From NCBI GenBank assembly GCA_037443445.1, contig JBBIOJ010000007.1, positions 69,383-133,382 on the forward strand: DNA of 64,000 nucleotides, in the 5' to 3' direction. The notes beneath the pieces were generated by a model. The model was not told where the DNA came from. It saw only the letters and a program-made list of their open reading frames with translations, and made no database searches. The position numbers were made by a program, and so were the translations under genes. The first letter of the stretch is position 1, and each line of letters opens with the position of its first letter. Below, in pieces: positions 14,016 through 40,051 of the stretch. The DNA comes from Desulfarculaceae bacterium. Lineage in GTDB: Bacteria > Desulfobacterota > Desulfocorpusculales > Desulfocorpusculum.

Positions 14016-14346
14016 TTAGCTTTCGGGTTCCTGCCTTCCGGAAGGGGAGTGGCGGGGGGTTTCCATGAGACAAGGAGCTGTGTTCAATTCCTGGGTCACA
14101 TTCCCCGCTGAATCGTTTTCCTCCTGGAGTACAAGAATGCTGTACAAGGAATTTCTGGTCCTGAACCCCCCGGGACTGACCTGTAATACCTTGGATGTCC
14201 GGAAAACAGATCCCTTTTCAGTAAAGAGCACGTAGATCTCACCGACCCTGGGAGGTGTCAACTCCCAGCCTTCCCAGACTGTGCCCACTTGAAAATTGGG
14301 ATGTTTTTCTCCAAGGGTGCGTTCCACCGATACTTTTCGGGACATG
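14016..14346 (-). CDS. hypothetical small protein, paralog family member A (GWE...NGKV.RTS motif family)
   Basis: RBS GGAAGGAGG 6 nt upstream of the ATG at 14346 (MSRKVSV); shares the motif GWE..PPRVG..Y.V.....G.V.RTSKV....GGF.T.NS.YS.LVL with three other ORFs in the window. Confidence 0.6.
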
Positions 14347-14611
14347 GGCACCTCCTTCCCCGTTTCGGATTTGGGGGTTGCGGCGGTCGTTTGTCTGTTA
14401 AGCAATGCCCGTGCCATGGTATGGGGACGTAAGACCGCGTTTCTTGAGGCCTGGGTGAAGCCAGGCTGGGATCAGGGCTCCAAATGGGAATTTCTGGTCC
14501 AATTCTGTTCAGTGGCCCATCCCTCAGGCCATACCCGGGGCTTGGAGGCATGGCCCCCTAAGTTGTAAGCCCTGATGAGCAAGGCGCAGTGGTTTTCCCC
14601 GGGCCAGGATC

Positions 14612-14642
14612 TTGACAAAGCAGACAAATGTCTGCTAAATTA
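14612..14642 (+). promoter_or_regulatory. lexA promoter (TTGACA-N18-TAAATT) with palindromic operator AGCAGACA-AA-TGTCTGCT in the spacer; candidate LexA box
   Basis: Perfect -35 TTGACA at 14612-14617, -10-like TAAATT at 14637-14642, and perfect 8-bp inverted arms at 14619-14636, about 50 nt upstream of the lexA ATG (14692). Confidence 0.55.
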
Positions 14643-14691
14643 CAAGAGCTGAGGAGAGTGTAAAGGCTGGGTCAGTTCACGGGAGGGAGCC

Positions 14692-15351
14692 ATGCCTTAC
14701 AGCCCTGAGGGGAAGACCAGAGAGCGAGTGTTTCGCTTTGTGCTGGAGCGGATCCTGGCCGGAAGACCCCCCACGGTGCGTGAGGTGCAGGAGGCCATGG
14801 GCTTCCGGGCTGTTGAAACAGCACGTCGTCACCTAGAGAATCTGGTGGCCGATGGAAAGCTGCTCAGGGAACCAGGGAAAGCTCGAGGCTACAAGCTCCT
14901 CCAGGAGGCCCGTGAGGTGGTGCTGGTGCCCCTGCTGGGCCGCATCCAGGCCGGGCCCCTTACCACGGCCCTGGAGGAGCCGGATGAGTACCTGGCGGTA
15001 GCCACAAGTAGGGAGAAGGGGGATCTCTTCGCCCTGAGGGTCAGGGGCAACAGCATGCTTGAGGCAGGCATTCTTCCAGGCGATATCGCCATAGTGCGCA
15101 GACAAGCCGTGGCCCAAGATGGGGATATTGTGGTGGCCATGGTAGAGGATGAGGCCACTTTGAAAAGACTCAGGATAAGGGGTGAGTACATAGAGCTCCA
15201 TGCCGAAAACAAGGATTTCCCTGCCATGCGCTTCAAGCCCTGGGAGGTGAGAATCCTGGGCAAGGTTATCCAGATCCGCAGGGATCTGGAATCCTCTCAC
15301 GGGCTGGGAGGCGGCTCGGTCTTGGGAAAGGTGGGAGGGATAGGGGGATGA
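14692..15351 (+). CDS. lexA: LexA repressor (S24 peptidase)
   Basis: Winged-helix N-terminus; catalytic Ser/Lys context (RGNSMLEAGILPGDIAIV...LKRL); first gene of the mutagenesis cassette. Confidence 0.85.
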   Translation: MPYSPEGKTRERVFRFVLERILAGRPPTVREVQEAMGFRAVETARRHLENLVADGKLLREPGKARGYKLLQEAREVVLVPLLGRIQAGPLTTALEEPDEYLAVATSREKGDLFALRVRGNSMLEAGILPGDIAIVRRQAVAQDGDIVVAMVEDEATLKRLRIRGEYIELHAENKDFPAMRFKPWEVRILGKVIQIRRDLESSHGLGGGSVLGKVGGIGG

Positions 15352-15992
15352 GAATCGTGGAAAGAGCCGGGCTTAAGCTCAACATGGGAAAACATCTGGT
15401 GAGGCTTGTCCCTTCAAGGATGCCCTCAGGCTCCTCAATGGAACTCACCCGGAGGGATCTCTCAGGAAGGCTGGTGGAACTTTCGGGATACGGCCCTACA
15501 GCCTTGCTTACCATAGCTGCCAGGTTGGTCCTGGATGCCCAGCTTGAGGGGGAGACAGTGGCCTGGGTTACCAGCATGGAGAGTAGTTTTTACCCCCCCG
15601 ACATGAAAGAGACAGGAGTAGATTTGAATGCCATGGTCGTGGTGCGTTGCACTGAGGTGCGTGCAGCAGCCAGGGCAGTGGATCGGCTGGCTCGTTCTGG
15701 GGCCTTTGGGCTTTTGATCTTGGACTTGGGAAATGCTACGGATCTGCCCCTTCCTCTCCAGACAAGACTGGCAGGCCTGGCCCGTACCCATGATATCGCA
15801 TTGGTCTTCTTGACCGAAAAACCACAAGAAGCCCCCTCTGTCAGCTCCCTGGTCTCTGTAAGGCTGATGGCTGAGCGCTCCAGCCTGGAGGGGGCACTCT
15901 TCTCATCTCGGGCCTTTGCCCTCAAGGACAAGGTGAGGGGACCTGGCTGGAGCAAGGAGTTACTGTGCCATGGGCCGCCTGGCCTGTGTTGA
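15348..15992 (+). CDS. imuA: ImuA-like SOS mutagenesis protein (RecA-fold, SulA-like)
   Basis: Overlaps the lexA stop by 4 nt; about 214 aa; sits between lexA and imuB/dnaE2 as in described imuA-imuB-dnaE2 cassettes. Confidence 0.6.
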   Translation: MRIVERAGLKLNMGKHLVRLVPSRMPSGSSMELTRRDLSGRLVELSGYGPTALLTIAARLVLDAQLEGETVAWVTSMESSFYPPDMKETGVDLNAMVVVRCTEVRAAARAVDRLARSGAFGLLILDLGNATDLPLPLQTRLAGLARTHDIALVFLTEKPQEAPSVSSLVSVRLMAERSSLEGALFSSRAFALKDKVRGPGWSKELLCHGPPGLC

Positions 15993-17454
15993 TCTCCCAG
16001 AGCTTCCTCTCCAGATCCTCCTGGATCACCATCCAGAATGGAGAGGGCTTCCGGCAGTGGTCGTGGCTCAGGACCGACCCCAGGCAAAGATACTTTGGGT
16101 GAGTCCAGAGGCCCGCTCAGCAGGGATTTCAGTGGGGATGCGCTATGCCCAGGGGTTGAGCCTTGCACCGAGGCTGCAGGCGGCCGAGGTGGCCAGCAGG
16201 GAGCTGGAACAGGAGCTGAGGGAACTTACAGAGCTGCTCGGTAGCTTCTCTCCCGAGGTGGAGGTAGCAGAGGAGCCGGGGGTCTTCTGGCTGGGGGCAG
16301 CCGGGCTTGGGCGCCTTTTCAAGTCAGCCTCGGCCTGGGCCAGGCAGATTCATGAAGCCCTTGCGGCCAGGGGCAGGAGGGGTTCGGTGGTAGTGGGGTT
16401 CTCCCGTTTTAGAACTTACGGGATAGCCAGGCACATTGATGGGATTCGTGTGTTGAGAACCCCACAGGAGGAGGATTCGCTCTTCAGGGCAGTTCCTCTG
16501 GAGAAGCTCTCCCTGGGGCCGGAGCTGAGGGATACCCTGGAAAGGTTGGGGATTCAAACTGTGGGGGATCTCTTGAGGCTCCCTGGGCACGGGATTAGAC
16601 GCCGCTTCGGCCACGAGGCCGCGGAGCTATACGAATCAGCTTCAGGGGCCAGATACCAGCCCCTGGTCCCAAACCCTCATGAAGAACCGGTGGGCTGCGT
16701 TGTATCCCCGCAGGAGCCCTTATCAGAGGCAGTCCCTCTCCTGTTCCTGGTAAGGCGCCATTTCCACCCCCTCCTTCGCACCCTGGCCCGCCGTGGGGAA
16801 GCCTTGAGGGAACTAGAGATCAGATGGGTCATGGGCCTTGGCGCAGAACGCACGGATCGCGTCCGGCCAGCCAGACCCAACCTCCAGGAGCACCTTATCT
16901 TGGATCTGCTTCGTATAAGGCTTGAGGCCTTCCCATTGCCCTCCCCCGTGGAGGAGATACGCCTAAGGCTGCACGGAGTTCCAGCAGAACCAGAACAACT
17001 GAGGCTTTTTCTGGAGAGCTCCAGGAGGGACCTCTCGGCCGGAGACCGGGCCTTGGCGAGGCTCAGAACCGAGCTTGGAGAGGAAGCGGTGGTGAAGCCA
17101 CGCCTGCTGGAAGGGCACTTGCCGGAAGCCTCCTTCGCCTGGGAGCCCACGGATCACCTCAGTAGCCCCAAGCCCGGGCCCAAGGCAGGCCATTGGCCCA
17201 TGGTCCGGAGGGTCTACAGCAAGCCCCTGTGCCTTGGAATGAGGCCTCGCCACGAGCCGGACGGATGGATTGTCAAGGACTTGCATTGCGGGCCGGTCGT
17301 GCGCACCTGGGGGCCCTACGTGATATCCGGAGGGTGGTGGCGCAAGGAGGTGCATCGCTCCTACTACTTCTTGGAGACTCTGCGTGGGGACATTTTTTGG
17401 GTCTATTACGATGCATCCAGGAAGAGGTGGTTCCTCCAAGGAAGAGTGGAATGA
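15970..17454 (+). CDS. imuB: ImuB, Y-family DNA polymerase-like protein
   Basis: N-terminal LACVDLPELPLQ typical of ImuB; UmuC/DinB-like fold; about 494 aa; immediately upstream of dnaE2. Confidence 0.7.
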   Translation: MGRLACVDLPELPLQILLDHHPEWRGLPAVVVAQDRPQAKILWVSPEARSAGISVGMRYAQGLSLAPRLQAAEVASRELEQELRELTELLGSFSPEVEVAEEPGVFWLGAAGLGRLFKSASAWARQIHEALAARGRRGSVVVGFSRFRTYGIARHIDGIRVLRTPQEEDSLFRAVPLEKLSLGPELRDTLERLGIQTVGDLLRLPGHGIRRRFGHEAAELYESASGARYQPLVPNPHEEPVGCVVSPQEPLSEAVPLLFLVRRHFHPLLRTLARRGEALRELEIRWVMGLGAERTDRVRPARPNLQEHLILDLLRIRLEAFPLPSPVEEIRLRLHGVPAEPEQLRLFLESSRRDLSAGDRALARLRTELGEEAVVKPRLLEGHLPEASFAWEPTDHLSSPKPGPKAGHWPMVRRVYSKPLCLGMRPRHEPDGWIVKDLHCGPVVRTWGPYVISGGWWRKEVHRSYYFLETLRGDIFWVYYDASRKRWFLQGRVE

Positions 17455-17621
17455 ATCAGCCTGGATTTTTCAAGAGTAGTGGATCACCCAGGCTGAAAAA
17501 AGGGCGACTCTGATGGAAAGCACTCTGGCCGTGCAATGAGCAGCTTGTAGAGGCTTTGGGGTGAGAGCCCCCAACCTCATGGGCCTAGGCGAACAATCCG
17601 GGTTAGAGGTGAGGTGTCGAG

Positions 17622-20600
17622 GTGGGAAGTGGAGGCACAGGATATGTTCCGCTTTGGGTGAAGAGCCACTACTCCTTCCTGGAGGGAGCCAGCAGCCCGG
17701 GGGAGCTGGTGGAGGAGGCCAAACGCCTCGGCCTAAGCTCCATTGCGCTTACGGACAGGGACGGGCTCTACGGGGTGGTGCGCGCTTATGTGGCTGCCCG
17801 GGAGGCCGGTATCCATCTGGTGGTGGGGGCGCAGGTGAGTGTAGGGGAGGTGGAAAGCCGAGAGCCTGCAATCGGGAGTCCAGCTACTTCCCCCCTTGCC
17901 GCCCATCAATCCCAAGTAGTTCTATTGGCCATGGATCGGGAAGGTTATGCCAATCTTTGCAAGCTAATCACCCTGGGCAGGCTTCGCTCTCCCAAGGGCC
18001 GAAGTTTGGTGAGCTGGCAGGAGGTATGCCTGCACTCCAGGGGGCTCCTGGCAATGCTGGGCGGGGATGAAAGTGCCTTGGCTTCCAAGGCGGAGCCAGC
18101 CCCTATCCTCAACATGCTCAAAGATGCTTTCGGGGACAGGCTCTACGCGGCAGTGGCCAGGCACAAGAGGGCTGAAGAGAGGGATCAGGAGTACAGAGTA
18201 ATACTAAGGGCTCGAAAAAACTCCATTCCCTTGGTGGCGGCCCCCGAAGTGCTTTACCACACCCCCTCCAGACGTCCCCTGCAGGATGTGCTCACCTGCA
18301 TCAGAAACGGAGTGGCTCTGAGTGAGGCCGGGCGGTTAACGCGCCCCAATTCAGAATATGCGCTTCTGAGCCCCTTTTCCTTCCGAACCCTTTACCAGGA
18401 TCTTCCTGGAGCAGTGGAACGCACACTGGAGGTGGCCGAGCGCTGTAAATTTTCCCTGGAGGAAATCAGATACAGATACCCCTCAGAAAGGCTCCCGGAG
18501 GGGCTCACCTCCCAGCAGTGGCTCAGGGAACTGACCCTTAGGGGAGCACGGGAGCGCTATGGGGCCTCTGTCCCAGCGGAGGTGAGAGCCCAACTGGAGC
18601 GGGAGCTGGCTCTCATAGAGGAGCTGGACTACAGCGGCTATTTCCTCACCATGTGGGAGATAGTCAGGTTTTGTCGGGAACACTCCATCCTATGCCAGGG
18701 AAGGGGCTCTGCAGCCAACTCAGCGGTTTGTTACTGCCTCGGTATCACAGCCATAGACCCTGTGCGTATGGGGCTCTTGTTCGAACGTTTCATCTCCAAA
18801 GAGAGAGCAGAGCCGCCTGACATAGACCTGGACATCATGCATCAAAGACGGGAAGAGGTGATACAGCATGTGTACGAGCGCTACGGTCGAGACCATGCGG
18901 CCATGGTGGCCAATTTCATCCGGTACAGGCCCAAGATGGCCGTGCGGGACTTGGGGAAGGTGCTGGGGCTTCCCCGCACCAGCCTGGAGCGGTTGGCCAA
19001 GCTGCTTCCCCATCACGGGGAGATAATACCAGAGCATCTTCGCATGGCCGGCATGGACCCAAGTCTGCCCATTTCCCAACACCTAATCCGCCTGGGCTCG
19101 GAACTCCTGGATGTGCCGCGTCACCTCTCAATCCACCCCGGGGGATTCCTGCTGGGACACGAACCGGTTCACACTCTGGTGCCCATAGAGAGAGGCTCCA
19201 TGGAAGGCCGCACAGTCATCCAGTGGGACAAGGAGGACATAGAGGATTTGGGCCTCTTCAAGGTGGATCTGTTGGGCCTTGGGGCCTTGACTCATCTGGA
19301 TATTACCTTGCGCCTCCTGGAGAAACACCACGGGCTAAGTCTATCCATGGCCACCATCCCGGCTGAGGACTCTGCCACCTATGAGATGATCTCCAGGGGG
19401 GATACTGTGGGGGTGTTCCAGCTGGAAAGCAGGGCCCAAATGTCCATGCTGCCAAGGCTCAAGCCCAAGTGCTTCTACGACTTGGTGGTACAGATCAGCA
19501 TCATCAGGCCAGGGCCCATAACAGGAGGCATGGTTCACCCCTATCTGAGAAGGCGAAGCGGGCAGGAGCCCGTTGAGTATCCCCACGAGTGCTTGCGAGC
19601 TGTCTTGGAAAAAACCCTGGGGGTCCCCATCTTCCAGGAGCAGGTGATGAGGTTGGCCATGGTGGCTGCGGACTACAGCCCCGGAGAGGCGGACCAGCTT
19701 CGGCGGGACATGGCCGCCTGGAGAAGAGGGGGGCGCATGGGAAGGCACAGGGAGCGGCTGATCTCCAGGATGCTGGCCAAAGGAATTGAAAGGGAGTTTG
19801 CAGAGAGGGTCTTTCAACAGATCCAGGGTTTTGGGGAATACGGATTCCCAGAGTCCCACGCGGCCAGTTTCGCCCTTATAAGCTACGCCTCTGCCTGGCT
19901 CAGGCGTCACTGGCCAGCAGAGTTTGCATGCGCCCTATTGAATGCACAGCCCATGGGCTTTTACTCCCCGGCCACGATCATCGAGGATGCCAAGCGCCAC
20001 GGCATAGATATCAGGCCAGTCTCTGTAGTGCGCAGTTCTTGGGAGTGCAGCTTGGAACCCCTGGATGGAAAGGTTTGCCCTGGGGGGGAACAGCCGGAAG
20101 GGACCAAACCCGGCTTTGCTGTGCGCATGGGCCTGAGGTTCGTGAAAGGGCTGGGCAGGGGCCACTGGGAGCGTATTGTGGAGGCAAGAAATGTGGCCCC
20201 TTTTGCCTCCTTGGAGGATTTTGTCCAAAGGTGCGGGCTGGATCGGGAGGTGCTCTCGGCTCTGGCTCAGGCAGGAGCCCTGGAAGCCCTCCAGGAGGGA
20301 AGGAGGAACGCCCTTTGGGGAGTGCTGGGAGCCCCCAGAAGGCCCAGGTGTTCCATCCCTGTGAAAGATCGTGAAGCCAAAGCCTCTTTTGCGCCTCTTA
20401 GCGCCTTGGAGACAGTGATGTGGGATTACCGCACACAAGAACACAGCCCCCTGGCCCATCCCCTTGCAATGGTGAGGGAGGAACTAAGGAGAAGGGGTTT
20501 TCCTACAGCCCAGGAGATCTCCGGCATGGGCCAGGGCAGTAGAGTGCGTTATGCCGGACTTGTCATCTGTCGACAGCGCCCAGGCACGGCCAGAGGGGTT

Positions 20601-20819
20601 ACCTTCCTGACCTTGGAGGATGAGACCGGCTTTGTAAACGTGGTGGTCTGGCCCAGCCTCTACGTGAAGCACATGCCCCTTGTGAAGACCGCTCCTCTCT
20701 TGGGGGTATCCGGTACGCTTCAAGTGCAGGGGGAGGTGGTGAATCTGGTGGCCCGAAGCCTCTGGACACCGGGGGTCTCCCTTCAGAAGACCCACGGACC
20801 CAGCCGGGATTTCCAATGA
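17622..20819 (+). CDS. dnaE2: error-prone DNA polymerase III alpha-subunit paralog DnaE2 (ImuC)
   Basis: 1065 aa; PHP-domain N-terminus (KSHYSFLEGASSPGELVEEA) and Pol III alpha core motifs; GTG start with GAGGTG RBS. Confidence 0.85.
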   Translation: MGSGGTGYVPLWVKSHYSFLEGASSPGELVEEAKRLGLSSIALTDRDGLYGVVRAYVAAREAGIHLVVGAQVSVGEVESREPAIGSPATSPLAAHQSQVVLLAMDREGYANLCKLITLGRLRSPKGRSLVSWQEVCLHSRGLLAMLGGDESALASKAEPAPILNMLKDAFGDRLYAAVARHKRAEERDQEYRVILRARKNSIPLVAAPEVLYHTPSRRPLQDVLTCIRNGVALSEAGRLTRPNSEYALLSPFSFRTLYQDLPGAVERTLEVAERCKFSLEEIRYRYPSERLPEGLTSQQWLRELTLRGARERYGASVPAEVRAQLERELALIEELDYSGYFLTMWEIVRFCREHSILCQGRGSAANSAVCYCLGITAIDPVRMGLLFERFISKERAEPPDIDLDIMHQRREEVIQHVYERYGRDHAAMVANFIRYRPKMAVRDLGKVLGLPRTSLERLAKLLPHHGEIIPEHLRMAGMDPSLPISQHLIRLGSELLDVPRHLSIHPGGFLLGHEPVHTLVPIERGSMEGRTVIQWDKEDIEDLGLFKVDLLGLGALTHLDITLRLLEKHHGLSLSMATIPAEDSATYEMISRGDTVGVFQLESRAQMSMLPRLKPKCFYDLVVQISIIRPGPITGGMVHPYLRRRSGQEPVEYPHECLRAVLEKTLGVPIFQEQVMRLAMVAADYSPGEADQLRRDMAAWRRGGRMGRHRERLISRMLAKGIEREFAERVFQQIQGFGEYGFPESHAASFALISYASAWLRRHWPAEFACALLNAQPMGFYSPATIIEDAKRHGIDIRPVSVVRSSWECSLEPLDGKVCPGGEQPEGTKPGFAVRMGLRFVKGLGRGHWERIVEARNVAPFASLEDFVQRCGLDREVLSALAQAGALEALQEGRRNALWGVLGAPRRPRCSIPVKDREAKASFAPLSALETVMWDYRTQEHSPLAHPLAMVREELRRRGFPTAQEISGMGQGSRVRYAGLVICRQRPGTARGVTFLTLEDETGFVNVVVWPSLYVKHMPLVKTAPLLGVSGTLQVQGEVVNLVARSLWTPGVSLQKTHGPSRDFQ

Positions 20820-20928
20820 GAAGAGCCTGGAGGCTTGAATCCCCAGAGGCTTTGCTCTTGTGACCGTCGTGGAGGACGTGGATTGACCATGAGGGCTTTT
20901 CCATAAGAGAATAAGGGCGCGCCTCCAA

Positions 20929-21010
20929 GCGAGAGTGGCGGAACTGGCAGACGCGCTGGACTTAGGATCCAGTGGGGCAACCCGTGGGGGTTCAACTCCC
21001 CCCTCTCGCA
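20929..21010 (+). tRNA. tRNA-Leu (anticodon TAG)
   Basis: Type II tRNA: acceptor GCGAGAG/CTCTCGC, anticodon stem CTGGA/TCCAG with loop CTTAGGA, long variable arm, T-arm GGGGG-TTCAACT-CCCCC; 82 nt. Confidence 0.8.
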
Positions 21011-21179
21011 CTCGGCCCGTGGAGTGAAACAAAAAGGCCAGTTTATTGTCCCACCCGGCCCCTGGGGAGAAAAGCTAGACCTGGGCAGCAGAGCTTAGCA
21101 TGGAGAAGGGCCGGTAGCGGAAACTCGCGTCAGAGACAAGCCTCTGGGTGCCCAAGTTTGAGCAAGGGGGAATCAAGGG

Positions 21180-21716
21180 ATGGAAAGGGAATTCTCCAGG
21201 AGAGTCAGGATAAGAAAGATGGGGGGCGCACAGGAGGAGGTCTTCCCGGTGGACGAGGTGCGGGAGGGCTGGGAACGCCACAGGCCCGAGCCTGGCAGAC
21301 GTTACTACGTGTTCCAGGACAACGGGAAAGTGCTGCGCACCGGGGTGGTGAGGAAACTCACCTTGAGAGGGTTCGAAACAGAGAATTCCCAGTACGAGCT
21401 GGAGGAGGTGCCCTTGAGGGTGGGTCCTGCCTTGGGAGATACCGTGGGATTCACACTGGAGGCCAGGGATCGCCAAGGGAAATATCAGAGGGTTTGCAGG
21501 CCTGCCAAGGTGAGGATCCGGTGTGCTGACGGCAGTACCATAGTGGGTCATGTGAATTTGAGCTGCGAACCCGACGGCTTTGACCGGGTAAGCGAGATCT
21601 TCACAGAAGGGGAGAAGCCCTTCATTGTGGTTTTCAACGCCACCTCCCGGGGCAGGGGTGAAAGCGTCCTGGTAATCAACAAGGCGCACATAATCTGGGC
21701 CAGCCCCGAGGATTGA
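21180..21716 (+). CDS. hypothetical protein, paralog family member B (family core plus about 90 aa C-terminal extension)
   Basis: Contains GWE..RPEPGRRYYVFQDNGKVLRTGVVRKL..GFETENSQYEL; 178 aa. Confidence 0.55.
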   Translation: MEREFSRRVRIRKMGGAQEEVFPVDEVREGWERHRPEPGRRYYVFQDNGKVLRTGVVRKLTLRGFETENSQYELEEVPLRVGPALGDTVGFTLEARDRQGKYQRVCRPAKVRIRCADGSTIVGHVNLSCEPDGFDRVSEIFTEGEKPFIVVFNATSRGRGESVLVINKAHIIWASPED

Positions 21717-21782
21717 ATCCTGAGGCCCGCAAAGAGGAGCTCTTGCAGCTCTCTCAAATGGGGCTGCTGGAGAGCCAATGAT

Positions 21783-22769
21783 TCATGCCCCCAAATCCTC
21801 TCCCGCAAGCCTCACCTCCAGATAAAGGTCGCCTGTCTCCCCCAGAGCGTTTCTCAGACCAAGGCCCTTCAGTCTAAGCACGGTCCCGTCCCTGGTGTGC
21901 GGCGGGATTGTGACCAGGAAGTTTTTCCGAGCCATGCCGTGCCTGACTGATATGAGCTTTCGGGTCCCAAGCAAGGCCTCCTTGGGACTCACGCTTATCC
22001 AGCCCCTGATATCAAGATCCTCCAAAGGCTGGAGCCCGCCCAGCCGCTGGAGTTTGGGAGTCCTCTTTCTCAGGGTTCGGCTCCTGAGAGCTTCCCCCAG
22101 CCCTACCCTGGGCACCAGCTGGGAGAGTTTCAGGAGCGCTATCCCGGCCACAAACCCTCCTATGTGAGCCCACCAGGCCACCCCGCCGGCTTGGCCCGAA
22201 GTGGCTCCGGCCGAAAGGATCTGCATCAGGAACCACAGTCCCAGGAAAACAAAGGCAGGCACCTCCACCAGCTGCAGGAAAAAGAAAATGGGCAAGAGAG
22301 TAAGTATCCTGGCCCGTGGGAACAGAATAAGGTACGCTCCCATGACTCCGGATATGGCTCCGCTGGCTCCTATGGTGGGCACAGGGGACTTCCAGTTGGT
22401 GAAAAGATGGGCGAGACCTGCTGCCAGGCCGCAAAGCAAGTAGAAGACAAGATAGCGCAGATGCCCCAGACGATCCTCCACATTGTCCCCGAACAGGTAC
22501 AGGGACCACATGTTTCCCACCAGGTGAAGTATGCCCCCGTGCAAGAACATGCAGGTGAGAAAAGGAAGCATCTGTTCCACCGCACTGAATTTGGAGGCCA
22601 CGGCCGGGTCTGAATAACGCAGGGGCACAAGGCCGTAGAGGAAGAAGGCCTTCTCCAGCCTGGGACCCAAGCTGGCCTGCCAGACAAAGGCAATCAGGTT
22701 TGTTGCCATGATGGTGTAGTTCACCAACGGGAAGGTGAGGGAGCGGTTGCTGTCTCGAAGGGGTATCAC
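21783..22769 (-). CDS. rhomboid family intramembrane serine protease with C-terminal soluble extension
   Basis: Six predicted TM helices; catalytic GASGAISG and AHIGGF motifs. Confidence 0.8.
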   Translation of the reverse strand: MIPLRDSNRSLTFPLVNYTIMATNLIAFVWQASLGPRLEKAFFLYGLVPLRYSDPAVASKFSAVEQMLPFLTCMFLHGGILHLVGNMWSLYLFGDNVEDRLGHLRYLVFYLLCGLAAGLAHLFTNWKSPVPTIGASGAISGVMGAYLILFPRARILTLLPIFFFLQLVEVPAFVFLGLWFLMQILSAGATSGQAGGVAWWAHIGGFVAGIALLKLSQLVPRVGLGEALRSRTLRKRTPKLQRLGGLQPLEDLDIRGWISVSPKEALLGTRKLISVRHGMARKNFLVTIPPHTRDGTVLRLKGLGLRNALGETGDLYLEVRLAGEDLGA

Positions 22770-22824
22770 GAGATCCCCCCTATGTCCCTGAGAGGCAGGT
22801 GTTCATGGAGAGGCTGCCTTGTTC

Positions 22825-23658
22825 TCATTCTGGGCTCTTGAACGCCTCCAGCTCCCTTATCACTGCCGCCAATGCCCTGGCTGTTCTCACAAGGTTGGCT
22901 GGATCCCTCAGTCCCAGATATCTGACTTCCACCTGCACGGCTTGGGTTGGGCCGATCTTGTTTTCCAGAGACTTCAAGTATCCAGGAATGGCTTTCTTGG
23001 CACAATATTGGGGTACCCCGTCGGTGGCAGTGAAACCCTTTTGGCCCAAGCCCTTGAGGATCCCCCCTATCACCTCCTTTGAGGCCGTGGCTGCCCCCCC
23101 CTGGGCCAGAGCGCTTTCTCTCTCCTCTGAGGTGTATCCGGCCCCAAGGCAGAAATCTCCGGCGCAGAGCCTTCTAGCATTGGCATCTGACATGCCGTGA
23201 ATACAAAGCACAAGGGGCGTGGCCTTGGATCTGGAGGCTACTGTTCTTATCAGGTCCAGAAGCATCTCCATGAATCTTCTGGTATGGGGATTGGAACTCC
23301 ATGGCTGATTCAGGTTAGCCGGTCGGCCCGAGGCATGTTGGTTGCCCGGCTTGTGAAAGGCCTTGTTGTTGATGAGATAACAAGCATTCAGCTCCTTGGC
23401 CAAGAAAAATGCCAGATAGTCCGTATGGTCGTCGTCTCCGGGGAATCCGTGAGGGGCCACCACCAAGACGTTCGATGCCCCTTGGGCAAATACTTTGAGC
23501 TGCTGCTCCGGGTAGAACTCTTCTCGGAAAAGATTTCTCTGCTCTGGGGTGAGCTCCCTTTCTATGTTGCGCCTCACAGACAAAATCCAGCCCTGCAAGT
23601 CCTCCCTGCTCCTGGTGATCTCAAGGGTGGCCGTGTCCTGCTGCCGTGACAAATTCAT
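22825..23658 (-). CDS. hypothetical protein, possible metal-dependent amidohydrolase (FGase/poly-gamma-glutamate hydrolase-like motifs)
   Basis: Strong RBS GGGGAGG before ATG MNLSRQQ at 23658; motifs VVAPHGFPGDDDHTDY and VLCIHGMSD. Family assignment is uncertain. Confidence 0.45.
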   Translation of the reverse strand: MNLSRQQDTATLEITRSREDLQGWILSVRRNIERELTPEQRNLFREEFYPEQQLKVFAQGASNVLVVAPHGFPGDDDHTDYLAFFLAKELNACYLINNKAFHKPGNQHASGRPANLNQPWSSNPHTRRFMEMLLDLIRTVASRSKATPLVLCIHGMSDANARRLCAGDFCLGAGYTSEERESALAQGGAATASKEVIGGILKGLGQKGFTATDGVPQYCAKKAIPGYLKSLENKIGPTQAVQVEVRYLGLRDPANLVRTARALAAVIRELEAFKSPE

Positions 23659-30580: not shown

Positions 30581-30631
30581 GAAGGGCTCCTGCTAGGCGT
30601 TGTCTATAACCAGTGGATGATTATTATGGAA

Positions 30632-33684: not shown

Positions 33685-33791
33685 AGGACACCTCCCGCTC
33701 TTGCTACCCCCCGAAGATCACTGAAACTCCATTGGGCAAGTCATTATGCCCCACCGGACCGAAAGGCCGCAACAAGCCAAGAGGCGGGGGC

Positions 33792-34946
33792 TCATCCGAG
33801 CTTCAGTGAACTCCACCTCCGTGCTTGACCGAGCAACCTTTCCAGGCCCATGGAGAGGGCTGCTGTAACAGAGGCGGCTCCTGCCAAGAACAAAGGCCAG
33901 TAAGGGCTCCCGAGTCCTGTTTTTTCCATCAGCACGTCACCGTAAGCCAAGACAGGTTGATGAATGAGATAGATGCTGTAGGAAATCCTTGCAAGTCCGG
34001 CAACAGGCCTCAGCCTTCCAAGACTGGCTGCCCGGGAGGAGCCGAGCACCCAAGCCACCAAGAGAAAGCACCAGATGAAGAGGTAGGGATGATACAAGGG
34101 GAGTTGGTTCCGGTCCACCAGGAACCCCGAAATCAAGAGTGCCAGGCCCGCAAGAAAAAAAGATCTGCCCGAAAAGCACATCCAAGGCTGGAGGGAAAAA
34201 AGAGGCACTTCCCCTGGCTTCGCGTCTCCATGAGCCGCCGAGGCAAGCCACATGCCTGCAGCGAACTCCGGAAGCCTCACAGGAAGGTTGAAATAGAGCA
34301 TGTAATTCAACCCGGCCAGGGTTCCTCCGGGGTCTTTGGAAGCAGCAGTGGAAAGTGCCAGCCATCCTGCCCAGGAAAACAGGCTTGTCAGCACCAAACA
34401 CCTGAGGCTTCCAAAGCGTCTGAATAACCTCAATAAGATGGGGAAGGCCAGGTAAAATTGCGCCAAGAGCCCAAGCCACCAGTATGCAGGCACTATTGAG
34501 AAAAAAACCTCGGGGAAAAGGCTGTGGAGGAAAAGCAGATGAGCCAGAAACGGCCAGAGCAAAGAATCCAAGGAATTGGATGAGATCAGAAGAACAAGAC
34601 TCCAGAAGAGAAGCGTGATCCAGTAATTGGGTAGGATCCTGAGAAACCTTCTTCGCAAGAACTCCATGTACCCTGGAGGGGGGATGTTGGAAGCGCCCAG
34701 GTGGGGAAGGGAAAGCACGAAACCGCTCAAAATGTTAAAGAGAACGACTCCCAGATGTCCCCAAGATGAGATCTGGGCCAAGACGTAACCCAAAGCACCT
34801 GTCTGGCTCATCTTGGGCATGGAGCTCCAGGCGTGGAACAGGAATACCCCCCCAACCGCCAAGCCCCTGAGGAGCTCCACCTGAGGGACCAAGTTGGGAA
34901 CAGGATTCAAGTTCTCTGTTAATTGTGGTTTTCCCAGTTTCCTCAA
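33792..34946 (-). CDS. acyltransferase 3 family membrane protein (OafA-like)
   Basis: About 10 TM helices; N-terminal LLRGLAVGGVFLFH motif typical of the acyltransferase_3 family. Confidence 0.65.
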   Translation of the reverse strand: MRKLGKPQLTENLNPVPNLVPQVELLRGLAVGGVFLFHAWSSMPKMSQTGALGYVLAQISSWGHLGVVLFNILSGFVLSLPHLGASNIPPPGYMEFLRRRFLRILPNYWITLLFWSLVLLISSNSLDSLLWPFLAHLLFLHSLFPEVFFSIVPAYWWLGLLAQFYLAFPILLRLFRRFGSLRCLVLTSLFSWAGWLALSTAASKDPGGTLAGLNYMLYFNLPVRLPEFAAGMWLASAAHGDAKPGEVPLFSLQPWMCFSGRSFFLAGLALLISGFLVDRNQLPLYHPYLFIWCFLLVAWVLGSSRAASLGRLRPVAGLARISYSIYLIHQPVLAYGDVLMEKTGLGSPYWPLFLAGAASVTAALSMGLERLLGQARRWSSLKLG

Positions 34947-35332
34947 CCCTGCAGAACACCTTTTCTGGAAGCAGTATTATACCCCCTAAAAATATTTGCT
35001 TGACACCAGATGCCGTGGGATGGTATTGGATCTTTGTGCAGAAGGGGGGACGAGGGGCATGGGAGTCGGCAAGAAAGGCAATCTGAACTGGGGCTGGCGC
35101 AGCTCACATAAGGGGGTGAAGTGCGCCTGCTGACTAGATAATAGAAGAACCTGGCCGCGGGCATGCCTTCATGAGCCCACGGCAAGGTTAGGACGGAATC
35201 TTAAGGCCGTGGGTCCCAAGGATCCACGGCCTTTTTGGTTTCTGAGAAGGGAAGCCCCTTTGGGGCAAGGAGTCCCCCTCTCAATTATCTGCGCCGGGCA
35301 GTGCAGAAAGATCATAGCTCAGGAGGTGGCAA

Positions 35333-36412
35333 ATGTTTGCGGAGTGTCTGGAGAAGGTAATCAAGCACATGGAGCTCTCTCAGAGGGAGGCTTACCAGGT
35401 TGTGAAGGCCATGCTGGCCGGAGAAGTGGGCCCTGTGCAGATGGCGGCCCTGCTTACTGCTTTTCGCATGAAAGGGCTCAGCCCGGCGGAACTTACAGGA
35501 GCCGGCTTGGCCCTGAAGGAGAGCTTTGAGCCGTGGGCCAGGCTGGAGAACGGTTTTCTTTCCATTGACAGGGAGGAAATACACCTTGACCAGGAAACCA
35601 TCACCCGCACTTCCCTTCCAGGGAACCAGGGTACCGCCACCTTCAACGTCTCCACAGCCACGGCTTTGGTGGTGGCTGGAGCTGGGGGGCGGGTGGTGCG
35701 TCACGCAAGCCTGATCCCTTCGGAACACGTGGGCACAGAGCACGTGCTGAGAGAACTGGGAGTGCAGCCTGAGGTGACCCCCAGCATAGCCCGGAGGTGT
35801 CTGGAGGAGGCTGGGGTGGCTTTTCTTTACAGTCCAGCCATCAATCCAGCAGCAAGGCTGGTGCAGCAGGTGCGGCGGCAGTTGGGTTTCAGAACTCTTC
35901 TCAATGTGGCAGGGCCGCTTTCCAACCCCTGTGGGGCCAGCTCGGTTTACCTGGGGGCATATGATGCCTCAGATCTTAGCCTGTTTCCTTTGGTGGCCAG
36001 GGAGCTCGGGGTTGAGACAGGGATCCTGGTGCACGGAGAGCACACCCTGGACGAAGCCAGTATAACGGGCTGGACGCGAGTTTGTCGTCTTTACCCCTCG
36101 GAGATCCGCTTGAGGGAACTGGTGCCGGAGGACTTGGGGCTCAAGAGGGGCAAGCCCCATGAGGTCCGGGGAGGCACGGCAAGGGAAAACGCCATTATCA
36201 TAAGGCAGGTTCTGGAGGGGGCTGCGGGTCCCAGGAGGGATTTGGTCTTGCTGAACTCGGCCTTGGCGCTGGTGGCCTGCAACCTAGCCAAGGAAGAAAA
36301 AGAGGGCTTGTCAATGGCAGCCGAATCCCTTGACTCGGGTGCAGCGCTGCGAAGTTTGGAACTGCTGGTCAGGATAAGTAACGAACAAGGCTATCTAAGA
36401 AAGGCAGAGTGA
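35333..36412 (+). CDS. anthranilate phosphoribosyltransferase (TrpD) family paralog with degenerate active-site motifs
   Basis: Aligns with TrpD core (FNVSTATALVVAGAGG; ...HVLRELGV), but canonical GTGGD is GNQGTA and KHGN is RHAS; no trp genes adjacent. Confidence 0.6.
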   Translation: MFAECLEKVIKHMELSQREAYQVVKAMLAGEVGPVQMAALLTAFRMKGLSPAELTGAGLALKESFEPWARLENGFLSIDREEIHLDQETITRTSLPGNQGTATFNVSTATALVVAGAGGRVVRHASLIPSEHVGTEHVLRELGVQPEVTPSIARRCLEEAGVAFLYSPAINPAARLVQQVRRQLGFRTLLNVAGPLSNPCGASSVYLGAYDASDLSLFPLVARELGVETGILVHGEHTLDEASITGWTRVCRLYPSEIRLRELVPEDLGLKRGKPHEVRGGTARENAIIIRQVLEGAAGPRRDLVLLNSALALVACNLAKEEKEGLSMAAESLDSGAALRSLELLVRISNEQGYLRKAE

Positions 36413-36645
36413 AACAAGAATCAGTAACCGGCAGGTTCCAGCGGGAAGGGGACTTCTCTTGCCTCCACATCATTGAAAGAGGTTGATGTATGGGGCTTTT
36501 TCAGTTGAGGGCCATGAGCTGGGCGGTATTGGATCGTGCCAGAGGCTCATGGGCTTGAGCGCCCCGGGCAGGTGAGATTGATCCGGGCGATGGGCTCAGC
36601 TCCCAGGCCTTCTGATTGCGCCTGAGCACCCGGACTGGGGGGGAG

Positions 36646-36900
36646 TCAATCCATGTACTTTACTCGGTACGTGGAGTTGGCCGTTTCTATCCAGAGGACT
36701 CCATGAAATTCCTGTATTTTTCTCACCGGGCTGGTTCTTAGAAGACGGCCCTTTCCCAAATACACGAGATAGCGCTCCCCCAAAGTGGGGGGTGAGTACT
36801 CCCAGGCTATTACCGATTCCTGCTCGGATTCATCCTTGAATTCGGCCCTGGAGAAGGAGATCTTCCTTGCCTGGAACTCTTTGGTGCGGATGCCTTTCAT
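36646..36900 (-). CDS. hypothetical small protein, paralog family member D
   Basis: ATG at 36900 (MKGIRTKEF) preferred over the GTG at 36921; contains WEYSPPTLGERYLVYLGKGRLLRTSPVRKI......ANSTYRVKY; divergent from the AOR gene. Confidence 0.5.
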   Translation of the reverse strand: MKGIRTKEFQARKISFSRAEFKDESEQESVIAWEYSPPTLGERYLVYLGKGRLLRTSPVRKIQEFHGVLWIETANSTYRVKYMD

Positions 36901-37627
36901 GATTATGACCCCATTCTTCACGAATTCTCATGACAAACCATCCATCCCAGCCTATGACCCTGTGCCGACCCACCAATGCCGGTGGACCCAATAGCATGGG
37001 TACCCTACGCCAGTTCAAGCGCCAATGCCCAAAGAAATGGGTGGCAAGCCCCAAGATCCCACGGGAGACCCTTTGGTGTCGGGATCCCAAGAGAGCTGTC
37101 GAGAGTCTCGAACACTCAAGGTTCTTGCAACAGAATCACATTGGCGCAATCAAGACCAATGGTCAGGCCGCTACATTATCCGGTGCTGGCGAACAATGTA
37201 TGCCTGTTTCCGCCCCCAAGGGAAGCTCCGGGCCAAAGATAACCTCTCTCCCGGAACAAAGCAATACCAACCTGAGTGTTCCCCTTGGGGTCCCCGAGAG
37301 GAAGAGGTCAAGCCCTTATCCCTGGGGTGGCTCAACAGATCGATGCTCAAGGGGCCCATCTTTTAAGGAAAAGCCTCCGTGCCTTTGGGAATCGGTGATC
37401 CGCTGGAGGCATATCATGATGTTGGCTTCAGTTGCCCAAGGCTGTCAAAGGAATAAGGGCCAATAATCGCTAGGTTGTATGGAACCTTATGAGGGATCTC
37501 CCAGGGGTCGGGGCGGTTTGGCTTCTCGAGAGGTTGGGACGTGGAGGATTTGCAGCCAGGGTGTTCCTGGGATAATCTAGCTCTTGTAATGGCGTTACAG
37601 GCTCAGAGGTCTCTTGGAGGGAACCGC

Positions 37628-39457
37628 ATGAAGGGCTGGCATGGCAGGCTGCTTAGGGTCGAGCTGAGCGAGGGGAGGATATGGGAAGAGGAGCTAAAGG
37701 AGGAGGTGGCCAGGGATTTCATAGGGGGCAGGGGAGTCGGAATACACTACCTCCTCAAGGAAGCTGATCCCAAGGGGGATCCGTTTTGCGGGAAGAACCC
37801 CCTTATCATGATGGCCGGCCCCCTTACAGGAACAGGAGCTCCCACAGGGGCGCGCTACATGGTGACAACTCTGTCACCCCTTACCGGGGCTCTCACCTGT
37901 TCCAATTCGGGGGGTATGTTCCCGGCCGAGCTGCGAAGGGCTGGCTGGGACGGGATCATTTTCACGGGGAAGGGGTCGCATCCTGTTTATCTGTGGGTGG
38001 ATGGGAGCAAGGCGGAACTCAGGGATGCCACAGAGCTTTGGGGTAAAAACACCCACCAGACAGAGCAGACCTTGAGGAGTCAGACCCATGCACAGGCCAA
38101 GGTTGCCTGCATAGGACCTGCAGGGGAGCGCCTGGTGCGTTTCGCCTCCATAATGAACGACAAAGACAGGGCTGCCGGCCGTTCTGGTGTCGGGGCTGTG
38201 ATGGGTTCCAAGAACCTCAAGGCCGTGGTGGTAAGGGGGAAGGGAAAGATCCCGCTTCATGATCCAGACGGGTTCAAGGAGCTAAATGCTAGACTTCTAA
38301 AGAAATTCAATGAGACATACAAGGACGCCCCCCCACCTCTTCGCCTGCACGGCACAGCAGTGACAGTCATGGCCACGCAGAACTACGGGGTTTTCCCGAC
38401 CCGCAACTTCCAAAGCGGCATTTTCCCCGGGTGGGAAGCCATTCACGGCGAGACCCTGAGCAAGAGATTCCTTGTGTCGCACAAGGCTTGTTTCGCATGT
38501 CCCATCTCCTGCGGCAGGGTGACCAGGGTGAGTGAACCTCCCTTTGAAGGAGAAGGTGAGGGGCCAGAGTACGAGACCGTGTACGCCCTAGGCTCCAATT
38601 GCGGGGTGGACAACCTGGCGGCCGTAACCAAGGCCAATTACCTCTGCAACGAGCTTGGGATGGACACCATATCCATGGGCTCTGCCATAGCCTGTGCCAT
38701 GGAGATGGCCGAAAGAGGGATTCTCTCAGAGAAAGAGGTAGGCCGCCATCTTGCATTCGGGGATGCCGAGGCGCTGGTGGAGCTGACCCGCATGACAGGG
38801 CTGAGGGAAGGTTTTGGGGACCTACTGGCCGAAGGGAGTCTCAGGCTGGCCACCCGGTATGGACATCCAGAGCTTGCCATGGTCTCCAAAGGGCAGGATT
38901 TTGCCGGGTACGAGCCCAGGGGGGAGCAGGGCATGGGCCTGGCCTATGCTACCTCTCCCATCGGGGCCTCCCACATGCGGGGGGATCCGGCCTACTTCGA
39001 ACTGCTCGGGGTGCCATGTAACGTGGATCCCTTGAGTTGGAAGGACAAACCCCCGGTGGTGGCCAAGTGGCAGGATCTTTTCTGTATCATTGACTCGGCC
39101 GGGCTTTGTGTTTTTTTCTCGGTGAGAAATCTCGTTCGTCCAGAACTGATGGCCCCGCCTGTGGGGATAATGGAACTCCTGAATGCGGCTACAGGGGCGG
39201 GCTACACCCTGGAAGAGCTGGAAAGGGCAGGGGAGCGTATATTCAATGCCGAAAGGATGTTCTTGGCAAAGGCGGGGTTTTCCAGAAAGCAGGACACGCT
39301 TCCCCCCCGCATGCTCAGGGAGCCTCTTCCCGAAGGTCCAGGGAAGGGCATGGTTTGCCACCTGGAGGAGATGCTTACCGATTATTACCGCGTCCGGGGC
39401 TGGACCCAGGAAGGTATACCCACAAACCAGAAGTTGAAGGAACTGGGGCTTATGTGA
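37628..39457 (+). CDS. aor: tungsten-containing aldehyde:ferredoxin oxidoreductase (AOR family)
   Basis: MKGWHGRLLRVELSEG start typical of AOR; about 610 aa with the AOR N-terminal domain and C-terminal Cys motifs (CFACPISC); GGAGGG RBS. Confidence 0.85.
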   Translation: MKGWHGRLLRVELSEGRIWEEELKEEVARDFIGGRGVGIHYLLKEADPKGDPFCGKNPLIMMAGPLTGTGAPTGARYMVTTLSPLTGALTCSNSGGMFPAELRRAGWDGIIFTGKGSHPVYLWVDGSKAELRDATELWGKNTHQTEQTLRSQTHAQAKVACIGPAGERLVRFASIMNDKDRAAGRSGVGAVMGSKNLKAVVVRGKGKIPLHDPDGFKELNARLLKKFNETYKDAPPPLRLHGTAVTVMATQNYGVFPTRNFQSGIFPGWEAIHGETLSKRFLVSHKACFACPISCGRVTRVSEPPFEGEGEGPEYETVYALGSNCGVDNLAAVTKANYLCNELGMDTISMGSAIACAMEMAERGILSEKEVGRHLAFGDAEALVELTRMTGLREGFGDLLAEGSLRLATRYGHPELAMVSKGQDFAGYEPRGEQGMGLAYATSPIGASHMRGDPAYFELLGVPCNVDPLSWKDKPPVVAKWQDLFCIIDSAGLCVFFSVRNLVRPELMAPPVGIMELLNAATGAGYTLEELERAGERIFNAERMFLAKAGFSRKQDTLPPRMLREPLPEGPGKGMVCHLEEMLTDYYRVRGWTQEGIPTNQKLKELGLM

Positions 39458-39466
39458 AAAGATAGG

Positions 39467-39739
39467 ATGGCAGGAGACTTGGGAGCAGAGCCGGGACAAG
39501 AAGGAATCAGTGTGGAGGTGAGGTTGTACTCCACCCTGAGGGCTTATGCCCCTTCAGGCCAAGAGCCTTTCTTCCTGGAACTTGCGGCCGGGGCCACTGT
39601 TTCCTCGGCCCTTGAGGCCCTTGGGATTCCGGAAAAAACGGCAAAGGTCGTGCTTCTCAACGGGAGAAACGCCTCGGCCTCGGATTCTTTGAGTCAAGGT
39701 GATCTGTTGGTCCTTTTCCCGCCAGTGGAAGGGGGATGA
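39467..39739 (+). CDS. MoaD/ThiS-family ubiquitin-like sulfur carrier protein
   Basis: About 75-90 aa ending in a diglycine (…LFPPVEGG); ISVEVRLYSTLRAY resembles a MoaD N-terminus. The true start may be the GTG near 39512. Confidence 0.6.
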   Translation: MAGDLGAEPGQEGISVEVRLYSTLRAYAPSGQEPFFLELAAGATVSSALEALGIPEKTAKVVLLNGRNASASDSLSQGDLLVLFPPVEGG

Positions 39740-39763
39740 GGGCCAGGAGAGAGGAAGCCTGCC

Positions 39764-40051
39764 ATGTTCAGAAAAGTGCTTCTGCGAAAGATCAAAGGCA
39801 GCAGCGAGGGCGGATTCCCGGATGGAACCGAAAGGGTGGGCTGGGAAAAAGAACCACCCCGGGTGGGTGCCAGGTATACTGTATACGAAGACAACGGGAA
39901 GGTTTACAGGACCAGCCTGATCCGAAAAGTCTCGGGGGATGGGTTCGTGACCTCTCATTCCACCTATGTTCTGAAGGTGCTTGAGGATTCACAGGGAAAT
40001 TCAGAATCTGGTGGGAAGCCAGACAGGTTTTCTCCTGGAGGGGGGGCTTGA
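39764..40051 (+). CDS. hypothetical small protein, paralog family member C
   Basis: MFRKVLLRKIKG...GWEKEPPRVGARYTVYEDNGKVYRTSLIRKVSGDGFVTSHSTYVLKVL; 95 aa; its stop abuts the next gene's start. Confidence 0.6.
   Translation: MFRKVLLRKIKGSSEGGFPDGTERVGWEKEPPRVGARYTVYEDNGKVYRTSLIRKVSGDGFVTSHSTYVLKVLEDSQGNSESGGKPDRFSPGGGA

Follow-up and report, generated by a model that had tools for sequence, protein, structure and literature searches.

Several families of small all-beta domains are built to bind rather than to catalyse. PilZ (PF07238) is a small beta domain of about six strands with a basic N-terminal segment that occurs as many stand-alone paralogs per genome and in varied fusions, and its hallmark is an RxxxR motif followed about 20-30 residues on by (D/N)xSxxG. 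The WW domain (PF00397) has three strands in about 35 amino acids (aa) and two conserved Trp residues ~20-22 residues apart, the second of which forms the ligand site. Sm/LSm/Hfq and SH3/Tudor barrels are small all-beta meanders with non-catalytic binding roles. Here we describe an unannotated domain of about 75 aa that shares features with each of these and is encoded by four paralogous genes, named A to D, in a 64,000-nucleotide stretch of a Desulfarculaceae bacterium genome (assembly GCA_037443445.1, contig JBBIOJ010000007.1, positions 69,383 to 133,382). This whole stretch is called the window, and all positions below are counted from its first nucleotide; family proteins are numbered P and loci in other genomes or metagenomes L.

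A reading made from the sequence alone had reported four open reading frames (ORFs) with a shared core at separate loci, and the ORF list and translations agree with it. Paralog A lies at 14016-14345 on the reverse strand and encodes 109 aa, the core being followed by a disordered acidic tail. The sequence-only reading had placed its end at 14346, one position too far; the start codon is the ATG at 14343-14345, with GGAGG 6 nt upstream. A longer in-frame ORF of copy A extending to 14417 was rejected as unused because every ortholog begins with MSRKV behind the GGAGG site. Paralog B (21180-21716, forward strand, 178 aa) consists of the core (21180-21416, residues 1-79 by profile match), a disordered linker and a C-terminal Sm-like DUF6812 region. 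Paralog C (36646-36900, reverse strand) is a stand-alone core with a 4-residue insertion ahead of strand 5, and has 84 aa from its ATG or 91 aa if translation begins at the GTG at 36921. Paralog D (39764-40051, forward strand, 95 aa) carries the core and a short disordered tail. The claim that each copy has its own ribosome-binding site stood for A (GGAGG) and D (GGAGAGAGG), where a Shine-Dalgarno-like sequence is clear; at B and C it is weaker.

The core of ~75 aa is common to all four copies, and 12 positions are invariant in their alignment, including W, E, P, G, Y, G, R, T, T, S and Y. Composition-corrected BLASTP between the copies gave E = 4e-8 to 3e-19 at 37-46% identity, and a degenerate DNA pattern derived from the invariant residues matched four times in the window compared to 0.00 matches expected from 100 shuffles. 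The similarity is thus well beyond chance, as had been proposed, and the low-complexity artefact that had been named as a possible refutation was not seen: the E values are corrected for composition, and the invariant residues span W, E, P, G, Y, R, T and S. A profile built from the four copies and searched against the six-frame translation of the window recovered exactly these four, with the next match at E = 6.6 and no fifth copy.

Each paralog has its own group of orthologs in related genomes and metagenomes, among them P0002, P0003, P0005, P0006, P0011, P0014 and P0015 for copy A and P0013 and P0019-P0026 for copy C. The closest relative of the window among the genomes compared is Desulfarculaceae co274_493 (LexA 90%, AOR 88% and copy B 98% aa identity). 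Ortholog comparisons spanned 55-98% identity and gave ratios of nonsynonymous to synonymous substitution (dN/dS) of 0.13-0.17 for A, 0.018 for B (against L033), 0.06 for C and 0.07-0.10 for D; dS was close to saturation or above it. Judged from these coding sequences, all four copies are under purifying selection and are kept by it. Since dS is near or beyond saturation and each paralog has orthologs of its own, the duplications are older than the split of these genomes.

The core did not match any described family. The four window proteins gave no match on the core in Pfam-A or NCBIfam at E <= 10, and their sole Pfam match was to DUF6812 on residues 120-171 of copy B, off the core. Among 85 multi-domain family members searched against Pfam at E <= 0.01, no family occurred in more than five proteins, and those five matches were again DUF6812, off the core; ten further members searched at E <= 1 showed nothing on the core. 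The core had no match in PADLOC, and in PHROGs only matches at E >= 0.005 to families of unknown function. Most modules fused to the core were likewise without a match in Pfam, NCBIfam, PADLOC and PHROGs. An origin as a phage or defence protein was rejected: there was no PADLOC match and no significant PHROGs match, and the lone DNA match on a viral contig had no profile support. Family members in a collection of 5.8 billion proteins are named only 'hypothetical protein' and carry no precomputed Pfam domain, and a literature search for the domain family or for DUF6812 returned nothing. The earlier statement that the motif belongs to no named family is therefore upheld by the Pfam, NCBIfam, PHROGs, PADLOC, PDB sequence and literature searches.

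To this core corresponds a sizeable family. An exhaustive hidden Markov model (HMM) search of 1.84 billion cluster representatives (50% identity; a library without taxonomy) returned 314 at E <= 1e-3 and 113 at E <= 1e-10. A word-indexed protein search found far fewer members than the exhaustive one, 27-35, also when a 101-sequence profile was used. When one genome from each of 185,579 species was scanned with a strict DNA motif, 32 stretches were returned, 25 of which were confirmed by the profile. All 25 sit in five metagenome-assembled genomes of Desulfarculaceae/Thermodesulfobacteriota, and no strict-motif copy was confirmed in the other species genomes scanned. These five genomes hold at least 4 copies (Desulfarculaceae JdFR-97, binchicken_co274_510 and Thermodesulfobacteriota RSWS15) or at least 7 copies (binchicken_co274_493 and binchicken_co107_236) each, numbers that are lower bounds because the DNA pattern is strict. 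The view of the four genes as a lineage-expanded module is borne out by these counts. The same pattern matched 96 stretches in metagenomes, which together with one viral match gave 97 new loci; 73 of the 97 were profile-confirmed, the viral-contig match being among the unconfirmed.

Conservation was tabulated over 169 domain copies, using copy D numbering. T63 and Y68 are conserved in 100% of them, G26, E28, P32, Y38 and S66 in at least 94%, and R3, G35, G45, N65 and V53 in about 80-90%, while position 50 is T or S in every copy. W27 is present in 67%, with an aromatic residue at this position in 82%. Positions 3, 4, 9 and 49 are basic in 79-96% of copies (79% at the R49 position). The mean net charge is +3.5 and the median isoelectric point (pI) 9.6; strand 1 alone carries +3.3. 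The resulting signature is [RK][RK][VI]x[LIV]x[KR] ... G-[W]-E-x3-P-x2-G-x2-Y ... G-x3-[RK]-[TS]-S-x-V ... T-x-N-S-x-Y. Cys or His reaches 30% at no position, and the sole Asp to do so is D43 (34%), in a turn. From this pattern we read the domain as a probably non-catalytic, binding domain, in which a structural role is probable for several of the invariant Gly, Pro and turn residues.

An AlphaFold2 model of copy D built on a 28-sequence alignment had a mean pLDDT of 79, and ~90 in the core. It comprises six strands (3-12, 23-28, 37-42, 47-57, 60-63 and 66-75), no helix and a disordered tail. The copy B model shows the same six strands in its core (8-16, 27-32, 41-46, 51-60, 64-67 and 70-76) and two domains, with a disordered linker at residues 80-92. 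Foldseek against the PDB gave a best E of 0.098, with weak matches to the Pif1 SH3-like domain, Tudor, SH3 and Hfq; Sm proteins, bL19 and PH-like folds were further weak matches across the comparisons. As only weak matches were obtained, the model points to a small barrel or sandwich of beta strands, broadly SH3/Sm/PH-like and with no specific relative. It had been guessed beforehand that the copies form a small nucleic-acid- or protein-binding beta-barrel: the barrel fits the six-stranded model and its weak SH3/Tudor/Sm/PH-like matches, and the binding is what we infer. The family is new, but the class to which it belongs, that of small modular beta-barrels that serve as binding domains, is well known.

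How the core differs from the closest described domains can be stated in detail. It resembles PilZ in size, strand number, basic N-terminal segment and genomic distribution. However, the PilZ motifs are absent from the core: Pfam PilZ did not match, R3, K4 and K9 lack a conserved RxxxR spacing, and N65-S66 lies ~60 residues downstream of the basic residues, as part of T-x-N-S-x-Y. The model also showed no clear structural similarity to solved PilZ barrels. The G-W-E-x6-G-x2-Y-[hydrophobic] segment has the spacing of the first WW hairpin. A broader profile searched against PDB sequences gave six weak matches, all of them WW (whole-sequence E 0.025-1.1, per-domain E >= 0.7), and hhalign against WW sequences, most of them entered by hand, gave 42% probability (P = 2.7e-4) over 21 columns, covering the first hairpin only. 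Unlike in WW domains, the position of the second, ligand-binding Trp is R49, and the core has six strands in ~75 aa; Pfam WW was not reported on the window proteins at E <= 10. As far as sequence comparison can tell, the likeness is a motif-level resemblance, not membership. The core is like Sm/LSm/Hfq and SH3/Tudor barrels in size, all-beta meander topology and presumed non-catalytic role, with no clear structural similarity in the model to the Sm fold (an N-terminal helix and five bent strands). PH/PTB/EVH1-like domains, including archaeal CheF, are among the closest known folds; the modelled domain does not form their seven-stranded sandwich with a C-terminal amphipathic helix.

In its C-terminal half, copy B belongs to DUF6812 (PF20660), matching it at 30.5 bits compared to a gathering threshold of 27.1 over residues 120-171 (21537-21692) and the full model (1-53 of 53). 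Precomputed DUF6812 matches are also found on copy B orthologs, and seven family members have this architecture. DUF6812 has an Sm/LSm/Hfq fold, an assignment that is an incidental gain of this work. A reading of copy B as a tandem of two related barrels was rejected, as DUF6812 is unrelated to the shared core. An Sm-type ring formed by this region would make the module multivalent.

Domain architectures were counted in 179 proteins. About 95 are stand-alone. The domain follows an N-terminal membrane helix, a coiled coil and a linker in 29, an Arg-rich helical N-module of ~85 aa in 28, an unannotated N-module of ~235 aa in six and an 'EFYF..WPDELW' N-module in four; besides the seven DUF6812 fusions, three are tandems. 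Positive residues follow the helix of the membrane-anchored class (read by eye), suggesting that its domain is cytoplasmic. Single cases join the domain to FHA (P0126), a LuxR helix-turn-helix (HTH; P0147) or an Ada zinc domain (P0131) behind it, or to MshEN+GAF (P0132), PilZ (P0149) or an HxxxCxxC anti-sigma-type motif (P0067) ahead of it, and two members have Cys-rich CxxC N-termini (P0160, P0165). As read from these sequences, such a spread of fusions is typical of a promiscuous module with a signalling or adaptor role. The two recurrent N-modules, 'MIIFQNGKKY...EVEISSHDFY' (~235 aa; P0079, P0083, P0084, P0107, P0139) and 'EFYF..WPDELW..KGKPKLWV' (~110-165 aa; P0071, P0110, P0141, P0159), had no match in Pfam, PADLOC, PHROGs or the PDB.

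One subfamily is physically linked to PilZ, both by an adjacent, translationally coupled gene and by a fusion protein. A YcgR-like PilZNR+PilZ gene lies directly upstream of the gene for the helical-N+domain protein in L004, L006, L017 and L018, an arrangement seen in JdFR-97, co274_493, RSWS15 and co107_236. In L017 the PilZ gene (470-1129) overlaps the helical-N+domain gene (1126-1704) by 4 bp. A single polypeptide, P0149, carries the C-terminal part of such a PilZ domain joined to the family domain; it matches the L017 PilZ protein by BLASTP (5e-13) and Pfam PilZ at 23.8 bits compared to a cut-off of 22.5. Two other candidate PilZ fusions were rejected, as P0046 and P0076 had no significant BLASTP match to the L017 PilZ protein and no Pfam match (at E <= 1 and E <= 0.01, respectively). 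Downstream of the helical-N+domain gene come a NUDIX-like gene and a 1,786-aa UvrA-like gene. Among the metagenomic loci of this PilZ-linked type, 15 of 16 have PilZ and/or NUDIX-like and UvrA-like neighbours, and the exception (L075) is a 1.3-kb contig; a second helical-N type (e.g. L058) occurs without any of these three neighbours. The conserved, translationally coupled operon together with the P0149 fusion shows that at least one subfamily works with a receptor for cyclic di-GMP (c-di-GMP), and this is the strongest functional clue obtained. The cluster of PilZNR+PilZ, helical-N+domain, NUDIX-like and UvrA-like genes was observed at L018 (559-7998), L017 (470-2723), L004, L006, L052 and L079. 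Its NUDIX-like gene encodes ~260-290 aa and falls below the Pfam cut-off in one case, and the UvrA-like giant is an ABC ATPase with duplicated UvrA modules.

On balance, we favour the reading that A to D are paralogs of an unannotated, non-catalytic domain of ~75 aa that serves as a binding or adaptor module in signalling networks. Its partner, macromolecular or anionic, would be recognised at a conserved surface that combines basic (R3, K4, K9, R49), aromatic (W27, Y38, Y68) and polar (E28, T50, T63, N65, S66) residues, and the domain would connect signalling inputs to that partner; the best-supported input would be c-di-GMP sensed by the PilZ protein. Our estimates for the kind of partner overlap: a protein or peptide is a serious candidate at somewhat below an even chance, a nucleic acid is unlikely, a nucleotide second messenger is distinctly unlikely, and a role as sulfur-carrier or cofactor accessory, which concerns D only, is improbable. 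Several points weigh against this reading. The invariant G26, P32, G35, G45 and T-x-N-S turn could be purely structural. The PilZ-linked subfamily is not present in the window, so that extending its role to A to D is an extrapolation. Distant stand-alone members have heterogeneous neighbourhoods, one lying beside a two-component system and another overlapping a TusA-domain gene, and the conserved adjacencies may partly reflect shared ancestry because the genomes that share synteny form one family-level clade. A more specific proposal, that the family is a new Thermodesulfobacteriota-specific signalling module, either the effector arm of PilZ-type c-di-GMP receptors or a receptor fold for another nucleotide second messenger, is tentative and rather unlikely. 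As a PilZ effector arm, the domain would bind a common cellular target and recruit it to membranes, Sm rings or transcription factors.

Within the window, the sequence-only reading had noted that two copies flank an AOR-MoaD operon, and the ORFs agree with this: C and D lie on either side of genes for aldehyde:ferredoxin oxidoreductase (AOR) and a MoaD-like protein. The AOR gene (37541-39457, forward; Pfam AFOR_N/AFOR_C on orthologs) and the MoaD/ThiS-like gene (39467-39739, forward; Pfam ThiS on orthologs), both below curated NCBIfam cut-offs, precede D, the latter directly. A desulfoferrodoxin (Dfx)-like gene (40053-40445, forward; PF01880, 25.8 bits compared to 22.2) begins 1 nt after the D stop codon. 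D-type members follow AOR and MoaD-like genes in every lineage seen, including one in which D is only 55-61% identical. The position after MoaD is the same in L001, L013, L034 and L036, with a 4-bp overlap with the MoaD-like gene in L034 and L036, and the Dfx-like gene is kept after D in L001, L034 and L036. From this arrangement the string AOR, MoaD-like, D, Dfx-like, of which D is the third gene, looks like an operon that likely includes the Dfx-like gene, and copy D would most likely be co-expressed with the other three. The N-terminus of the Dfx-like ORF, MRKRLLERREFAGILLGAGLSL..., reads like a twin-arginine (Tat) signal, which would be unexpected in a protein that partners a cytoplasmic AOR operon. 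This ORF begins 72 nt too early in the mechanical ORF list, at a TTG at 39981, and overlaps D there. In L042 (5538-6288), the gene of a distant stand-alone member, P0187, shares 11 nt with the 3' end of a TusA-domain gene, making this the second sulfur-carrier-type gene directly upstream of a member after the MoaD/ThiS-like gene of D-type loci; P0047 lies near a DsrE fragment.

Copy C is convergent with trpD (35333-36412, forward), encoding anthranilate phosphoribosyltransferase. This is a conserved C-type neighbour, kept in L015 (co107_236, where AOR is on another contig), L120 and L134. That this trpD encodes a YbiB-type DNA-binding protein was considered and rejected, since it passes the TrpD equivalog threshold (TIGR01245, 254.9 bits compared to 199). 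Copies A and C would probably be monocistronic.

Copies A and B bracket a forward-strand cassette of lexA, imuA-like, imuB and dnaE2 genes (14692-20819; Pfam on L038 orthologs). As had been described, A lies divergently across the promoter region of lexA (14692-15351; TIGR00498, 159.5 bits compared to 111), and one copy is next to tRNA-Leu: B begins 168 nt after this tRNA gene (20929-21011), which stands between dnaE2 and B. Only some members of the clade have their A-type gene divergent from lexA, and lexA adjacency is absent in the RSWS15-type lineage. B follows dnaE2, past the tRNA-Leu, in the close clade, and distant B-type members are located elsewhere and not beside dnaE2. The sole invariant neighbour of A-type genes is an MBL-fold hydrolase gene, which adjoins them with a gap of 1-6 nt at every A-type locus examined; in the window it lies at 13272-14009 (forward; Pfam Lactamase_B_2), convergent with A across a 6-nt gap. 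The hydrolase scored below threshold for RNase Z (112 bits compared to 293), cyclic-nucleotide phosphodiesterase (63.9 compared to 400) and Anti-Pycsar Apyc1 (31.5 compared to 50).

The lexA promoter (TTGACA-18-TAAATT, 14612-14641) holds a perfect palindrome, GCAGAC-AAAT-GTCTGC, at 14620-14635. This sequence does not match the E. coli LexA box CTGT-N8-ACAG; it is conserved in L026 and L038, and LexA probably uses it as its operator in this lineage. As GCAGAC-N4-GTCTGC it occurs once in the window, where a search allowing up to 2 mismatches found one other site, unrelated, at 63589. Apart from the promoter of lexA itself, no LexA-box-like palindrome was found near any paralog in the window. The SOS link hinted at by the sequence-only reading is thus not supported, the lexA and dnaE2 adjacencies also being lost in distant lineages. 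Direct SOS control of A is unsupported, and read-through from dnaE2 into B may occur.

Some further features surround A and B. Between A and lexA, a block of ~40 nt (TCCAAATGGGAATTTCTGGTCCAATTCTGTTCAG) at 14472-14515, which lies 130-170 nt ahead of the start of A, is near-invariant in L026, L038 and L039 and absent elsewhere in the window and from other loci, and it has no Rfam match. Reading this block as a sigma-54 or sigma-70 promoter was dropped, as the GG/GC elements were not conserved by eye. Rfam yielded only two tRNAs as known RNA elements near the paralogs. A-type tails (14016-14120 in the window; P0003, P0005, P0006, P0011, P0014 and P0015) share the motif DS[AS]G[NH][VI]TQE[LV] and are otherwise disordered. 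In MRR[VI]xIQKV-type members, including the LuxR HTH fusion P0147, the domain is followed by a related motif, 'KTQE[IL]'. The A-type motif could be a docking or autoinhibitory peptide. A rhomboid protease gene (21783-22769, reverse) is directly downstream of, and convergent with, copy B; it recurs with B-type members in L080, L088 and L123, and in L044 a rhomboid gene (2908-3597) lies 2.4 kb from the distant B-type member P0116, beside a YdjM-family gene.

The features that define the domain also bear on other explanations. The chance that the similarity is an artefact, whether of low-complexity sequence, of non-coding DNA duplicated recently or of spurious ORFs, is negligible: nothing was found in its favour beyond the weak Shine-Dalgarno sequences of C and B, and it is opposed by E values down to 3e-19, orthologs 55-98% identical with dN/dS <= 0.17, 314 clusters and a confident AlphaFold core. 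The basic residues R3, K4, K9 and R49, with the conserved aromatics and a median pI of 9.6, would suit a nucleic-acid-binding small beta-barrel whose stand-alone copies act as RNA or DNA regulators or chaperones, with B as a multivalent RNA binder and A and B acting with lexA-imuA-imuB-dnaE2. The fusion of copy B to an Sm/LSm/Hfq-fold domain, the weak fold matches to Hfq, Sm, bL19, Tudor and the Pif1 SH3-like domain, the position of A and B around the SOS mutagenesis cassette in several genomes and the 1,786-aa UvrA-like gene adjoining the helical-N subfamily all agree with this explanation. However, the net charge is modest (+3.5) and limited to one strand, and many members are membrane-anchored or hold the sensor position (LuxR HTH, anti-sigma-type), which is unusual for nucleic-acid binders. 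There is also no LexA box near A or B, the dnaE2/lexA adjacency is lost in distant members, and the trpD beside C is an ordinary TrpD rather than the DNA-binding YbiB type; we regard nucleic-acid binding as an unlikely, though not far-fetched, role for the family.

In a further alternative, the domain would be a functional analogue of PilZ and itself sense a small molecule, a nucleotide second messenger, held by the basic N-terminal segment and a barrel pocket lined by invariant polar and aromatic residues; we consider this distinctly unlikely. The PilZ-like distribution of the domain, with many stand-alone paralogs per genome and fusions at either end of diverse modules, speaks for such a role, as do the basic N-terminal strand, the invariant E28, Y38, T50, T63, S66 and Y68, the sensor position in the LuxR HTH protein P0147 and the HxxxCxxC anti-sigma-type protein P0067, and co-occurrence with the nucleotide-binding modules PilZ, MshEN and GAF. 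A fusion to PilZ or MshEN would, however, be redundant if the ligand were c-di-GMP, and T-x-N-S may do no more than hold a tight turn in place. The MBL-fold hydrolase always found beside A-type genes is weakly similar to cyclic-nucleotide phosphodiesterases, yet it is far under every curated cut-off (63.9 bits compared to 400 for the phosphodiesterase model). The constant place of D-type genes after AOR and MoaD-like genes, translationally coupled in L034 and L036, raises another idea: copy D, or possibly the family at large, would serve sulfur-carrier or tungsten/molybdenum-cofactor enzymes as an accessory factor, binding the MoaD/ThiS-like protein or AOR and aiding cofactor maturation or assembly. 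The overlap of P0187 with the end of a gene for the TusA domain, a sulfur-carrier family, and the DsrE fragment near P0047 agree with this idea. However, of at least four subfamilies the D-type alone has this context, and A, B, C, the PilZ-linked and membrane-anchored members and the signalling fusions are unrelated to cofactor genes. Two or three such adjacencies may also be chance because sulfur-relay genes are abundant in these organisms, and we find the accessory role improbable.

The preferred reading of A to D as binding or adaptor modules answers no long-standing question by itself: what it delivers so far is a clearly delimited domain of unknown function that has a testable link to c-di-GMP and PilZ. 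A seed alignment and a signature for a new Pfam-type family are provided. If the reading is correct, it would explain the conserved 'hypothetical' genes beside AOR, trpD and the imuA-imuB-dnaE2 cassette, and it would reveal an undescribed modular binding domain that wires c-di-GMP/PilZ, FHA, anti-sigma and HTH signalling in poorly studied sulfate reducers.

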